This document shows, one piece after another, positions 1 through 8,905 of a stretch of 11,845 bases of DNA. The DNA is from a virus. Taxonomy: Duplodnaviria > Heunggongvirae > Uroviricota > Caudoviricetes. The stretch is from IMG/VR virus record IMGVR_UViG_2541047885_000017, positions 1 to 11,845 of that record; one strand, given 5' to 3'. Numbering within the stretch: position 1 is the stretch's first letter; each line of letters begins with the position of its first letter. A program made the position numbers and the translations under genes. Below the pieces are notes generated by a model that did no database searches, had not been told where the DNA came from, and saw only the letters and a list, made by a program, of their open reading frames with translations.

Positions 1-162
1 AGTTTGCTCCTGCCATAACGTGAAGAAGCAATGACCTGGTGGTCCGTGACTTCCCTACGCTGGCATTATCCAGATCAGGTGATACGGGTATTTCTTACTA
101 ATTTTTGTTATCAGTTGATAATTAATAAGTTTTTCAGCATACAAGAATTAAAAACCTCAAAA

Positions 163-187
163 CTGACCACACAACTGACCACACATT
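163..187. repeat. Tandem direct repeat, two copies of a 12-13 bp unit (AACTGACCACACA)
   Basis: Read directly: aactgaccacaca at 163-175 is followed immediately by actgaccacaca at 176-187. Function unknown; it lies in the non-coding end beyond the large terminase gene. Confidence 0.5.
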
Positions 188-451
188 TTGTTGAAGCTCT
201 ACGAACAACGACGAACAATAACAAACAAAAGGGAAATTTGCTGGCAGTTTTGCTTAACCGTTATCATTTTTCGGCTATCCGTTATCAAGCTGGTGGATGA
301 TTACGGATAACCCGTTATGGAGATCCCCATATCGGCATCATGCCCACCAGCATGAAGTATTTTTCGCGGGTGTAAAAATTTGACGGGGCGGACAGTTCCA
401 TAAGTAATGGGTTGCAGGAATTTCGATCCCCATCCTGAATGCAATTTTTCG

Positions 452-632
452 TATATATATATATACAAAACAGCGCGGGTTATGCGGGTTAGCGGGTTAT
501 CTTCGCGTGCTAAGCATTTTTTACTCTTTAATATCAATACGTTAAAAAACAACGTATTTAAATATCAGCCAGAGTGTAACCCGCAAGACATTCAAAATAA
601 CCCGCAAACACCCCTCAAAAAACCCGCAAAAA
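452..632. repeat. Structured non-coding array: (TA)7 tract, three tandem GCGGGTTA, AT-rich spacer, three inverted TAACCCGCAA at about 21 bp phasing
   Basis: Read directly: (TA)7 at 452-465; GCGGGTTA at 475-482, 484-491 and 492-499; AT-rich 501-576; the reverse-complement motif TAACCCGCAA at 577-586 and 598-607, and AACCCGCAA at 621-629. The two triplets face each other across the AT-rich centre. Role (integrase arm sites, terminase binding or origin) is inferred only. Confidence 0.55.
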
Positions 633-5906: not shown

Positions 5907-7076
5907 CTAGCCAGCTTTCATTTCCAGAATTTTGATGGCGTTTGAATCCACCACACCACCGCCCAGATATTTATCCGTGTGGACCTTGTAGAATCCGGGT
6001 TCAGTAATGTTGTCCGGTCGGGTGCGAATACCCGTTACATGATCAACGATGAAATAACCACGACTGAAATCACCAACCGCGAGCGGTGCTTTTCCTGCGC
6101 CGATGTCCGGCATGGACTCCAGGCAGTAAACAGGACGACCAAGCAACATATCCGGCGCACCTTCTTTAAGGCTGTCGCGCCAGATATAATCTCCATTCTC
6201 ATTTTTCAGCTTCTGTAGTGTCCCTGCCGTGCCCGAGTTCATCACCCAGACGGCATTTTTGCGGTATTTCGCTTTCAGCTTGTAGAGAATGTCGATCAGT
6301 TCGTCCGCTGTAATGGAGGTTCCACTTGCCGCTACCATTTTTTCAATGGTGCCAAAAGCGCGGGTTTTGTCACTGGTCGCTGCACGGGTGTAAGCCATGA
6401 AGCCTTTCGGCTTGCCGTTACCGTCGCCATTAACAAAATCATCCTCTTCGGTGCTGGCGAACGTGTCGGCAATTTCGGAGGATAACCAGCCCAGAATATC
6501 CACCTCTGAAAAATCCAGGATTTCCTGCGTGGTTTTCGGGTAGGCGTAGATCGGATTCAGCTTGATGGTTACGCGTTCAATTTTCGGGGTGTTGGTTTCG
6601 CTGCGCGCGCTGCCTTCTGTGCCTCGTCCTACAGTTGCGCCGCCAGTGGAAACCAGTTTCTGAAACTCATTTGATTTTGCGGTCTTCACGGTCGCGATCA
6701 CGCGCATAACACTGTCATCCTGTAGCTGGCGCATGACTTCGCGATCAAGCTCAGGAATTACGGTATATCCGCCATCCCTGCCGCTGTCAGTGCTGGTGGA
6801 CAGTGATCGCACATCTCCGGTTACGATGTAGTTACGCAATTCATCAGATGATAATTTCTGGATGCCCGTTCCTGGCTTGCTGCGTTCTTCATCAGCCACA
6901 GACTCGAGGCGGGAAATTTCTGTGTCGAGGGAATCGGCTTTTGCACGCAGTTCATCAAACTGTTTGCCCTCGTCATCGTTCAGGCTGCGGTTTTCACTGT
7001 CGGCTTTTTCCAGCAGGGATCGCATCTGGTTTTTCAGGGCGGTTTTTTGCTGGCGGAGTTCGATTAATTTCTTCAT
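5907..7076 (-). CDS. Major capsid protein, HK97 fold, with N-terminal delta/scaffold domain
   Basis: 389-aa ORF. The first 100 or so residues are a coiled-coil-like charged region (MKKLIELRQQKTALKNQMRSLLEKADSENRSL...), as in HK97-type capsid delta domains, followed by a capsid-sized body; adjacent to the prohead protease. Confidence 0.9.
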   Translation of the reverse strand: MKKLIELRQQKTALKNQMRSLLEKADSENRSLNDDEGKQFDELRAKADSLDTEISRLESVADEERSKPGTGIQKLSSDELRNYIVTGDVRSLSTSTDSGRDGGYTVIPELDREVMRQLQDDSVMRVIATVKTAKSNEFQKLVSTGGATVGRGTEGSARSETNTPKIERVTIKLNPIYAYPKTTQEILDFSEVDILGWLSSEIADTFASTEEDDFVNGDGNGKPKGFMAYTRAATSDKTRAFGTIEKMVAASGTSITADELIDILYKLKAKYRKNAVWVMNSGTAGTLQKLKNENGDYIWRDSLKEGAPDMLLGRPVYCLESMPDIGAGKAPLAVGDFSRGYFIVDHVTGIRTRPDNITEPGFYKVHTDKYLGGGVVDSNAIKILEMKAG

Positions 7077-7270
7077 GAAGGTTTTCTCGTATTGGTTAAG
7101 ATTCAGGACGTGAAACCAACACGGAGGGAGCGCCGCCCGACACTCTCAGCATCTCGCAGATCAACCCGGCATCGCGCAGGGGGTCAGGCGGCATTGTGGC
7201 GGCTCACGTCTGAGTGCCACACGCCAACATATACATAAAAATCAGTATGTAAACATCAGCCAGAATCACC

Positions 7271-7296
7271 GAACAATCTGGAACAACCGCGAACAA
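7271..7296. promoter_or_regulatory. Three GAACAA direct repeats at exactly 10-bp phasing upstream of the capsid operon
   Basis: Read directly: GAACAA at 7271-7276, 7281-7286 and 7291-7296 (TTGTTC on the coding minus strand). They lie between the terminator and the capsid start in a 273-bp non-coding leader. A regulatory role is inferred. Confidence 0.3.
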
Positions 7297-7313
7297 ATAA
7301 TTTACAAAACCTG

Positions 7314-7340
7314 AAAAAAGACCCGGGAAAAATCCGGGCC
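7314..7340 (-). terminator. Rho-independent terminator
   Basis: Minus-strand RNA reads GGCCCGG-AUUUUUC-CCGGGUC followed by UUUUUU: a GC-rich stem of 5-7 bp, 7-nt loop and T-tract. It starts 10 nt after the stop of the 82-aa ORF and is followed by a long leader before the capsid gene. Confidence 0.6.
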
Positions 7341-7349
7341 TTTATCGCT

Positions 7350-7598
7350 TTACTGTTTCACGGGATCGCGCATTCTGCGCCTTATTTTCCACAAATATTC
7401 GATCATCGCTTCCACCTGCTCACGGTTGGTTGCGAAAATTTCCCCGGTCAGTGAGCTGCGCAGAAAATCATGATGATCCACAACAAACAACGCATCGGAA
7501 GAAAGCAGACGGCGATATTTTTTTGCTGTCGTGGTTTCCAGATCATCAAAACCATGAAACTTTTTATGTTGCTGAACTTCTTCAAATGTCACAGGCAT
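7350..7598 (-). CDS. Hypothetical protein (82 aa)
   Basis: Track ORF 7350-7637; preferred start is the internal Met at 7598 (MPVTFEEVQQHKKF...), preceded by AGGAGGA with a 5-nt spacer. No recognisable motif. Last gene before the terminator. Confidence 0.5.
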   Translation of the reverse strand: MPVTFEEVQQHKKFHGFDDLETTTAKKYRRLLSSDALFVVDHHDFLRSSLTGEIFATNREQVEAMIEYLWKIRRRMRDPVKQ

Positions 7599-7643
7599 GT
7601 TTCCTCCTGCTACCACGATACCAGAAACAGTTAACAACCGTTA

Positions 7644-7925
7644 TCAATTATCCCTTTTTTTCGGGTAGTTCCTGAACATCTCACCGCCAGGTTTCTGTAA
7701 GCCCATCCCGGTATGTGTGCGGTTTATGGCCTCTTTCAGTATTCCGAAATTATCCGGTATGACTGGTTGGCGCGCTGCCTTACGGATACATTCCGCGCGA
7801 CGCTTTGCCACCTGTTCGCGCTCCTTGTCAGTGCTCACCAGCCACATAACATCAGCCCAACGTGCCGCTGCTCTCCGGTACAGCCCTTTAGCCTCCAGTT
7901 CTTCCGCTTTGCTGTCTTTAATCAT
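7644..7925 (-). CDS. Small regulatory protein, possibly PerC-family transcriptional activator-like
   Basis: Preferred start is the ATG at 7925 (MIKDSKAEELEAKGLYRRAAARWADVMWLVSTDKEREQVAKRRAECIRKAARQP), preceded by GAGG with a 6-nt spacer. The KAEELEAKGLYRRAAARW...RR..CI pattern resembles PerC/Pch-type activators as I recall them; this is not verified by search. Confidence 0.45.
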   Translation of the reverse strand: MIKDSKAEELEAKGLYRRAAARWADVMWLVSTDKEREQVAKRRAECIRKAARQPVIPDNFGILKEAINRTHTGMGLQKPGGEMFRNYPKKRDN

Positions 7926-8620: not shown

Positions 8621-8663
8621 TTTTATTTTTACCCCCTCGTTTAAAAAGTTTTGAGTTGTGCCT

Positions 8664-8900
8664 CCCCCCCTCTACCCATCTACCCGAATGCTCATCATGT
8701 CAGTAATGGCGCGGCTTTCAGCGGGTAGATAGCTTTTTTGGCTCCTCTACCTGCCGTCTACCCTGCTACCTGAAACTGATAAAATCAGGTAGAAGAGGTA
8801 GAGAGCTTTTATTAGCCTTCTACCTGGCCCTCTACCTACTTATCATGTTGAATAATATGCGTTTATTTCATTCAGGTAGATGGGGTAGAGGGCTTTTACA
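8664..8900. repeat. Iteron array; putative origin of replication
   Basis: Read directly: about 12 copies of the hexamer TCTACC or its complement GGTAGA in about 220 bp, mostly in closely spaced pairs (8671/8679, 8723 rc, 8746/8757/8766, 8788/8797 rc, 8819/8831, 8875/8884 rc), interspersed with AT-rich stretches (8771-8786, 8837-8873). A 28-bp unit CAGGTAGAnGnGGTAGAGnGCTTTTA recurs at 8786 and 8873. Located immediately 3' of the primase-helicase gene. Confidence 0.7.
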
Positions 8901-8905
8901 AAAAA

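Follow-up and report, generated by a model that had tools for sequence, protein, structure and literature searches.

A predicted control region ahead of the capsid operon of an Escherichia coli capsid-forming phage-inducible chromosomal island, with a repeat array shared with the att arms and a conserved, folded leader RNA

The window considered here is the whole 11,845-nt stretch of IMG/VR record IMGVR_UViG_2541047885_000017; its key genes are all on the minus strand, and coordinates are window positions. Judged by its genes, it is a capsid-forming phage-inducible chromosomal island (cf-PICI) of E. coli, a phage satellite, because the gene set fits the definition of cf-PICIs (bioRxiv 10.1101/2022.09.08.507074) and the prototype island EcCIEDL933/Sp7 is organised alike. 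Such islands make their own capsids, take only tails and spread across genera. The word "promoter" is absent from both cf-PICI preprints that were searched, and how the packaging operon is switched on is not described in the cf-PICI papers examined. In the window, a gap of 273 bp lies between the gene for an 82-aa protein (phrog_1957; 7598-7350, minus strand), which is the last gene ahead of it, and the start codon at 7076 of the HK97-type major capsid gene (7076-5907, minus strand; PF05065, E = 2.6e-71). On balance, we take this gap (7349-7077, minus strand) to be the control region of the capsid/packaging operon. Read in the direction of the operon, it would consist of an intrinsic terminator, an array of helically phased repeats, a sigma-70-type core promoter and a structured leader RNA.

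Three sets of sequences were used for comparison: 80 loci found via the capsid protein, with one genome per species; 120 viral contigs found via the most conserved 22-mer; and the prototype islands EcCICFT073 and EcCIEDL933 together with a SaT040 island (L326). The evidence that they provide consists of sequence features and their conservation, fixed geometry, base-pair covariation, mutually exclusive helices, and the co-occurrence of the arrays with the arms of the attachment (att) sites and with the class of the island regulator AlpA.

The replication/accessory module ends at an intrinsic terminator on the minus strand (7343-7314). Its arms, AAAGGCCCGG and CCGGGTCTTT, form a 10-bp stem with the 7-nt loop ATTTTTC; TTT stands after the second arm and the T tract is T6 (-18.4 kcal/mol, z = -3.2). 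A simple terminator scanner missed this element, as its A/T pairs absorb the T-run. The stem is held in sister islands (L108, L146, L187) by compensatory changes from CCCGG/CCGGG to CCTGG/CCAGG, and EcCIEDL933 has an analogous terminator at the equivalent place. An earlier note on this DNA had described a strong intrinsic terminator on the minus strand (7314-7340) that separates the replication/regulatory genes from the packaging operon. The hairpin is real, judging from its fold energy, its z-score and the compensatory changes, and insulation is supported inasmuch as the element is a predicted intrinsic terminator with a conserved stem. The same note regarded the gap as one 273-bp leader. This view has to be revised in two respects. 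About 130 bp of the gap correspond to the terminator and to promoter/operator DNA, and only about 144 nt (7220-7077) are predicted to be transcribed. Moreover, this transcribed part is not a plain leader but a conserved structured RNA that had been overlooked.

The terminator is followed by a four-unit array with 10-bp phasing (7308-7271, minus strand). The units read TTGTAA, TTGTTC, TTGTTC and TTGTTC. The first, R0, is TTTGTAAAT (7308-7300), and R1 to R3 are the exact hexamers at 7296-7291, 7286-7281 and 7276-7271; together they occupy about -88 to -51 from the predicted transcription start. The three exact hexamers, for which 0.01 such matches are expected by chance in the window, are precisely where the earlier note had placed them (7271-7296). 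Among 143 related loci, the order upstream of the capsid gene is fixed: TTTGTAAAT, three repeat units at 10-bp steps, the core-promoter segment and a conserved hairpin named P1. Of the 141 instances in which the distance from TGTAAAT to P1 was measured, 138 have 88-89 nt. This conservation, and the fixed distance between repeats and core promoter, support the proposal that a separate promoter follows the terminator and that its helically phased upstream repeats have the look of an activator operator.

Two promoter types occur in about equal numbers. Type A, found in the window, has TTTAC(A/T) as -35, while type B has a GC-rich hairpin with a T-tract in the place of the -35 and repeats that read GTAC / GTTTAC / GATTAC. 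In type-B examples (L004, L007, L084, L202) this hairpin and T-tract read, for instance, CCCCTGTCTCTGACGGGGGTTTTCTTT, the stem sequence being variable and the pairing kept. By its sequence, the type-B hairpin looks like an intrinsic terminator sited between the repeat array and the -10. The conserved box and the repeats extend from Enterobacterales as far as Pasteurellaceae. One IMG/VR contig (L367) is a mosaic in which a window-type upstream flank and array are fused to an EcCIEDL933-type -35 and leader; operator and leader modules have thus evidently been shuffled independently by recombination.

The core promoter of the window (7253-7226, minus strand) is composed of TTTACA (7253-7248), a 16-bp spacer and TATGTT (7231-7226). 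It is the sole sigma-70-like match on the minus strand across the 11.8-kb window, and its position is conserved in about half of the 143 related loci (type A). From the position of the -10 and the 5' edge of P1, which begins 6 nt past the -10, we infer that transcription starts at about 7220 +/- 2. The earlier description of this segment as having only weak sigma-70-like hexamers was too pessimistic, since the hexamers match the consensus at 9 of 12 positions and their location is conserved. A TACAT-N10-ATGTA dyad reported in the same segment does exist; it is found at 7232-7251 and not at 7239-7258, i.e. seven bases away. This dyad is restricted to 24 loci of the window's own subtype and one apparently unrelated locus. 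Its sequence indicates that it is simply the -35 hexamer TTTACAT overlapping the conserved ATGTA ahead of the -10, and not a feature of the family.

The predicted 144-nt transcript from 7220 to 7077 has the properties of a conserved structured leader RNA with three hairpins, all encoded on the minus strand. P1 (7220-7196; GTGGCACTCAGACGTGAGCCGCCAC in DNA) would form the 5' end of the mRNA and is a hairpin of 5 + 4 bp with a GACG loop (GUGGC-A-CUCA-GACG-UGAG-CC-GCCAC). Its motif is near-invariant across genera whose capsids are just 66-76% identical. P2 (7192-7132) has a long closing helix, GCCGCCUGAC / GUCGGGCGGC, and a variable top; it varies widely in sequence and length, and all of its approximately 90 distinct variants fold to a long stem. 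The last hairpin, P3 (7122-7089), pairs GUGUUGGUU with AACCAAUAC in the window and has UCACGUC (7113-7107) in its loop. It is followed by the weak ribosome-binding region GAGAAAACC (7088-7077) ahead of the capsid start codon. The P3 of most relatives pairs GGUUUC with GAAACC and covers a GGAA ribosome-binding site.

The three hairpins were all predicted by RNAalifold, run unguided on a MAFFT alignment of 32 diverse leaders. When the structure is specified, 89.6% of the cells are paired, versus 36-45% with slid partners, and 21 pairs have double changes, a result reached by 0 of 500 shuffles. For P1, 100% of the cells are paired and three pairs have compensatory changes. In P2, 11 of the 12 closing pairs are changed on both sides, which exceeds all 500 shuffles. 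Several of the one-sided changes in the leader are G-U wobbles, compatible only with a transcript of the minus strand. A reading of TGGCAC in P1 as a sigma-54 element was rejected by eye: the GG-N10-GC spacing is unmet, and GTGAC variants break the GG.

The leader has no feature in RefSeq annotations. A cmscan search of 6800-7800 against Rfam at E <= 10 gave no match over P1-P3; the matches that touch the gap (rimP leader, PsiU2-55 and others) are centred on the terminator or the upstream gene and are far below gathering scores. An exact-sequence search of the searchable literature for P1 or the box found no paper that carries either. In a phage database, the P1 motif is present in only 3 satellite-like records out of 50,697, and was therefore not inherited from a sequenced helper phage. 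Among 5,426 complete E. coli genomes, at least 358 have the EcCIEDL933-type leader and at least 172 the P1 motif of the window's family. Upstream of the capsid gene in two loci from Photorhabdus / Xenorhabdus (L061, L064) stands a leader of a third kind, which looks unrelated, has separate hairpins and includes a terminator-like element, AGCGGTGG...CTACCGTTTTTTT. Leaders of the attenuator type may have evolved more than once ahead of this operon.

A GC-rich and extremely conserved segment at the head of the packaging module could also be thought of as the island's cos packaging site. The probability of this is close to nil, for base-pair covariation is unexpected for a terminase site and a packaged cf-PICI record obtained from an induced lysate (LR881103) ends elsewhere, in the gap between the HNH gene and terS that corresponds to about 2829-2711 of the window. 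The control region was rejected as cos on the basis of these termini and of a comparison with the HK97 ends. Between the small open reading frame after the HNH gene and terS (2829-2711, minus strand), dozens of islands share a conserved block, GGGGTGGGGGAGGTTTTCAGGAC ... CCTCCTCAAATTTTTATGCACGG ... TTTTTTGAAAAATAA. Both ends of LR881103 stop inside this block, about 85 nt lacking there, and in HK97 a similar G-run is found beside terS, at about 50 nt from the right cos end. From these resemblances, 2711-2829 is likely the cos region.

Besides its hairpins, the leader has a conserved long-range complementarity. The P1 apex AGACGUGA (GACGUGA, 7210-7204) is complementary to UCACGUC(U) on the 5' side of P3 (7113-7107); in the window, this heptamer sits in the P3 loop. 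For this pairing, 97% of the cells are paired, with one compensatory pair plus G-U wobbles. The inner stem of P1 competes with the pairing between the P1 apex and the last hairpin, and that pairing competes with the last hairpin itself. P1 of the Serratia/Leclercia clade has a U-to-G change that is balanced by an A-to-C change downstream and, in addition, within P1; two mutually exclusive helices would produce this pattern. A degenerate scan of viral contigs for variants of the downstream box (GGTTTCBCGTC...GAAAC) was too unspecific; one relevant match was among the matches listed, and it had the predicted GACGGG partner.

The leader of EcCIEDL933 has a different P1 inner stem (CCAG-GACG-CUGG) and a long P2. 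Its last hairpin is an intrinsic terminator, GUCCUGG...CCAGGAC followed by U8 directly before the AUG, and the 3' arm holds an AGGA ribosome-binding site. A 9-nt stretch of its P1, nucleotides 7-15 (CCAGGACGC), is a perfect complement of GCGUCCUGG, the 5' arm of the terminator (chance 0.005). For the fold of the leader as a whole, z = -5.4, and the competing states are similar in energy (-21.7 kcal/mol for the duplex versus -5.8 for the P1 inner stem plus -14.1 for the terminator). No further covariation was obtained for the EcCIEDL933-type leader, a lineage that is too uniform; its diverged member L374 retains identical pairing sequences. A four-codon mini open reading frame, AUG AAA AAC GGU UGA, is present in the leader of EcCIEDL933/Sp7 (L327, 8530-8690) and ends 8 nt ahead of the 5' arm of the terminator. 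It may be due to chance or be a ribosome-dependent input of an attenuator. The window has only an unconserved AUG CCG CCU UGA, inside P2.

The complementarity between the P1 apex and the last hairpin is thus kept in three lineages, each with a different sequence. Since the same topological pairing recurs with different sequences, the simplest reading is that it constitutes an expression switch, and on these grounds the leader probably gates capsid expression. It is possible, and we propose it only tentatively, that the leader represents a novel kind of cis-regulatory RNA switch, confined to phage satellites, in which a trans factor decides the outcome. Candidates for this factor are the 82-aa phrog_1957 protein, an AlpA-modified RNA polymerase or a helper-phage product.

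Two other explanations of P1 and its partner were considered. According to the first, P1 and the downstream box are operators in double-stranded DNA, i.e. inverted copies of AGACGTGA with a palindromic CTCA-N4-TGAG core, for a repressor that loops or blocks the road past the start. P1 is indeed an imperfect palindrome, both boxes are one 8-mer in opposite orientations, and symmetric changes (CTCC..GGAG; GTGAC..GTCAC) would also suit a dimer operator. However, P2 between them is hypervariable yet always paired, which is explained only by single-strand structure; one-sided G-U wobbles are tolerated in the minus-strand transcript only; and the partner of the P1 apex in EcCIEDL933 is exactly the 5' arm of an intrinsic terminator, which is an RNA element. 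We therefore regard DNA operators as quite improbable. In the second, P1 and P2 would be a processive antitermination RNA like HK022 put, acting across the 7-kb operon, with P3 being secondary. The putL RNA, from a close relative of HK97, has about 70 nt and two stem-loops that begin just past the promoter of a long operon (PMC9378689), and P1 and P2 also start at the predicted +1 and are 1-4 nt apart. The likeness, two stem-loops at the 5' end of a long phage-type operon, is architectural only: just the gross layout was compared, and no further similarity was seen. The top of P2 is hypervariable, in contrast to the conserved contacts of put, strong terminators are not evident within the operon, and the added conserved pairing between P1 and P3 is left unexplained. 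A put-like function is thus very improbable.

The repeat array is not confined to the capsid promoter. A second TTGTTY array (228-193, minus strand) consists of TTGTTT, TTGTTC, TTGTTC and a weak fourth unit, and lies within the island, about 100-130 bp from its int-distal end (attR arm). It has one mismatch to the three-unit pattern (0.01 expected by chance) and is present in every sister island that shares the window's right arm. Adjoining it is a doubled 12-mer, TGTGTGGTCAGT x2 (185-162, minus strand), which from its arrangement is likely an integrase arm-type site. In the SaT040 island, both att arms have three or four TTGTTC units abutting a doubled GGTGTAGTTAAT. Both att arms of EcCICFT073 and EcCIEDL933 likewise pair TTGTTC arrays with a doubled GGTGTAGTTAAT, and these two islands also carry an array in the gap between int and alpA. 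The int-alpA array of EcCIEDL933 (TTGTTCGTGGTTGTTCCACATTGTTG) and the capsid-promoter array of this island (TTGTTCGTGGTTGTTCCACGTTGTTC) are nearly identical. A doubled motif flanks both sides of the PICI attP and has been proposed to represent integrase arm sites; that study leaves undecided whether integrase or AlpA binds the att-flanking motifs (PMC10111431). The doubled 12-mers vary with the integration system, from GGTGTAGTTAAT to TGTGTGGTCAGT, whereas the TTGTTC array stays constant. This argues that the 12-mers are integrase arm sites and that the arrays are bound by another protein.

The sites of recombination directionality factors (RDFs) are direct repeats one helical turn apart, and the RDF Apl of phage 186 also regulates promoters (PMC7498355). 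AlpA resembles TorI and Xis (PMC10803314), is needed for PICI excision/induction and activates its own promoter (PMC6092414; PMC11773190). Over-expression of alpA is described as promoting reproduction of EcCIEDL933, the protocol including mitomycin C for phage induction as well (bioRxiv 10.1101/2025.02.11.637232). The window stops short of alpA; AlpA (PF05930) is encoded in the sister islands L001 and L326. Two properties of an RDF-type operator were found for the array: it has at least three helically phased direct repeats, and the same repeats recur at the att arms beside integrase arm sites. Moreover, short-type AlpA goes with TTGTTCG/A flanks in 11 of 11 cases and long-type AlpA with GTnCTCATGTTT in 15 of 18 (Fisher p = 1e-5, not ancestry-corrected). 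In that table, the type-B promoters with an unambiguous AlpA class all go with long-type AlpA. AlpA of L001 is 93% identical to that of SaT040, and AlpA of CFT073 is 58% identical to that of L001. AlpA is favoured because the arrays are shared with the att arms and the int-alpA gaps and because their flanks covary with its class. From this pattern, the island's excisionase-like AlpA is the likely candidate for the array binder, the chances that it does bind there being about evenly balanced. The host factors CpxR, PhoP, OmpR and IHF are not known to have spacings or cores that fit the repeats.

The earlier note had proposed an activator-dependent late promoter with weak hexamers, under a helper-phage or island regulator, the adjacent PerC-like protein being one candidate activator; in this model the phased hexamers would be the site of the activator. 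A gene for a PerC-family protein (7937-7644, minus strand; PF06069, E = 3e-35) is indeed found two genes upstream of the control region, PerC-like genes are near the equivalent position in EcCIEDL933 and EcCICFT073, and PerC-related PHROG families are labelled transcriptional activators. However, among the 106 related loci whose upstream sequence extends to 3 kb or more, only 6 have a PerC homologue, and none of the 46 type-B loci has one. Identical TTGTTC promoters also occur without PerC where the SSB gene directly precedes the 82-aa gene. An activator encoded by a helper phage is unlikely to be required either, since tail-less cf-PICI capsids with packaged island DNA have been reported from a non-lysogenic strain holding only the island (bioRxiv 10.1101/2025.02.11.637232). 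With a leader that is a conserved folded RNA in addition, this proposal has become improbable.

The following mechanism, in which AlpA occupies the array, would bring these elements together. The terminator at 7343-7314 would stop transcription arriving from the replication/accessory genes. AlpA, an excisionase-like winged-helix regulator, would bind the four-unit array (TTTGTAAAT plus three TTGTTC, about -88 to -51) and also the matching arrays beside the integrase arm sites at att, so that excision would be coupled to capsid expression. The bound protein would aid RNA polymerase at TTTACA-16-TATGTT (7253-7226), with a start near 7220. The location of the array ahead of a reasonable -35 suggests activation rather than repression. 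The initial 144 nt of the mRNA would then fold to P1, P2 and the last hairpin, the P1 apex being able to pair with the 5' side of the latter. With P1 closed, the last hairpin would form and, in sister lineages, cause termination or mask the ribosome-binding site. If instead the P1 apex were paired downstream, formation of this hairpin would be blocked, and the leader would function as an anti-sequestor or antiterminator. We have moderate confidence in this four-layer model of 7349-7077 (terminator, operator, promoter and leader) taken as a whole.

Several observations weigh against it. The -35 and -10, with their 9/12 match, are good enough for some activator-independent transcription. The window's own P3 leaves the ribosome-binding region free and has no U-tract. 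P3 displays only G-U wobbles and no double compensatory change, and the variation in P1 and in the long-range pairing stems from few independent lineages. L001, the closest island that includes alpA, has no clean TTGTTC array upstream of this gene. The association between AlpA class and array flanks is confounded by shared ancestry, and one AlpA cluster (about 75% or more similar) occurs with both type-A and type-B promoters, whose repeats differ. The arrays could instead be bound by the arm domain of the integrase or by a conserved host protein, in which case the copy upstream of the capsid gene would be a relic of recombination or a site under host control. That one AlpA cluster goes with two repeat types fits this explanation, as does the direct contact of the arrays with doubled arm-type motifs at att, and the choice between integrase and AlpA is left open in PMC10111431. 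Three points speak against it. The TTGTTC sequence of the array is constant across integration systems, whereas the doubled 12-mer is not; the spacing between array and core promoter is fixed (138/141), which is unexpected of a relic; and the array flank covaries with AlpA class. We consider a binder of this kind unlikely, and AlpA remains the preferred candidate.

Upstream of alpA in L001 (1369-1459), a terminator-like hairpin (CGTCCTCG...CGAGGACG plus T7) with CGTTCG repeats stands directly before the alpA start codon. Further upstream, the palindrome GTGATATCAC occurs twice, 22 bp start to start. From its sequence, this pair looks like a separate operator for another regulator.

The genes around the control region are those of a cf-PICI. 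Upstream are a D5-type primase (10660-8906), SSB (8366-7941), the PerC-family protein and the 82-aa protein, all on the minus strand. Downstream of the capsid gene are those for a prohead protease and a portal, and the packaging operon extends from capsid through terminase. After the portal, according to the annotation of L001, come head-closure and head-tail connector proteins, an HNH protein, then TerS and TerL. L001 is the closest complete relative; it adds an integrase and the AlpA-family regulator (PF05930) on the left, and its right end is at thiM. Positions 1-95 of the window are ordinary E. coli chromosome, in the thiM riboswitch region, with the chromosome junction near position 95. 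EcCIEDL933/Sp7 (L327) has the same gene order, including the PerC-like pchE and, right ahead of the capsid gene, the homologue of the 82-aa gene, ECs1589.

The 82-aa open reading frame has an AGGAGG Shine-Dalgarno sequence and matches phrog_1957 with E = 1.6e-36; no Pfam family was matched by its product. Of the 143 related loci, 92 have a homologue, in every case upstream and in the same orientation. In the unbiased set based on the capsid, the gene is found in 12 of 19 leader-bearing versus 1 of 50 leaderless loci, a difference confounded by phylogeny. An AlphaFold model of the protein (mean pLDDT 51.7, shallow alignment) is too poor to use. A further regulator is encoded by the 99-aa DUF4222 open reading frame at 10956-10657 (minus strand), which has RGD at residues 20-22 and is RgdR, as identified via the RGD motif and PMC3378721. 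RgdR from O-island 51 / EcCIEDL933 is a LEE1 activator with non-specific DNA binding (PMC3378721). It is present in 33 of the 106 related loci with at least 3 kb upstream, i.e. under half. PerC, RgdR and the 82-aa protein were rejected as universal regulators, none of them being universal among the related loci.

Other repeats were noticed elsewhere in the window. After the primase gene (8660-8905, minus strand), an AT-rich stretch lies amid many direct and inverted iterons of the CTCTACC / GGTAGAG type; the replication origin of the PICI is expected here. Downstream of terL (471-630, minus strand), an AT-rich segment is bracketed by three direct copies of TTGCGGGTT (about 630-577) and three inverted copies of AACCCGC (about 498-474), and a (TA)n run follows at about 455-469. 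These repeats may be another set of iterons or else belong to a regulator site of the variable cargo region. The open reading frame at 31-300 (plus strand), whose match in a sister island is a hypothetical protein in RefSeq, is probably not a real gene because it spans the junction near 95 and overlaps the att-arm repeats.

Among known systems, P2 Cox activates the late promoter P_LL of the satellite P4, and P4 Vis is a dual-purpose RDF and regulator too. The TTGTTC arrays resemble the sites of 186 Apl, P2 Cox and P4 Vis in that helically phased direct repeats occur both at att and at promoters (Apl: PMC7498355). Apl and Cox mainly repress early promoters, whereas the target here is the satellite's own capsid/terminase operon. 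AlpA is the master inducer of PICIs such as EcCICFT073, EcCIMP1 and PICMI, and the islands studied here encode an AlpA (PF05930). In PICMI, however, alpA expression left satellite gene expression unchanged (PMC10803314). Neither an AlpA operator nor direct control of the packaging operon by AlpA is described in the PICI literature examined. By analogy, the operator part would be a new member of the dual-purpose RDF kind, acting on the satellite's own capsid operon.

The leader shares mutually exclusive helices with attenuator and anti-sequestor leaders, the EcCIEDL933 platform being a U8 terminator that contains the ribosome-binding site. It differs in that its competing partners are about 100 nt apart and split by a large variable hairpin, and no ligand, leader peptide, tRNA or protein trigger was identified. 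In addition, the window's variant is without a terminator and its ribosome-binding site is unmasked. In the C4 / CI antisense immunity RNAs of P1, P7 and P4 phages, the loop of an early hairpin likewise pairs with a downstream leader site near the start of the first gene. The leader has no C4 match in Rfam and displays no sign of small-RNA processing, and its pairing is predicted to open the downstream hairpin rather than to block it; the likeness to these RNAs is one of architecture only. As far as its sequence indicates, the leader would work in the manner of an attenuator or anti-sequestor, though no described family includes it.

If the array is truly shared between att and the capsid promoter as a binding site, one excisionase-like protein would couple excision to capsid synthesis. 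The leader RNA, which has neither an annotation nor an Rfam family, would be a second gate. If it is indeed a switch, it would provide a checkpoint after initiation that times capsid production against excision and replication. Both array and leader are also present in the prototype EcCIEDL933, which is experimentally tractable and for which mutants and reporters exist, and they constitute handles for controlling PICI-based delivery vehicles.

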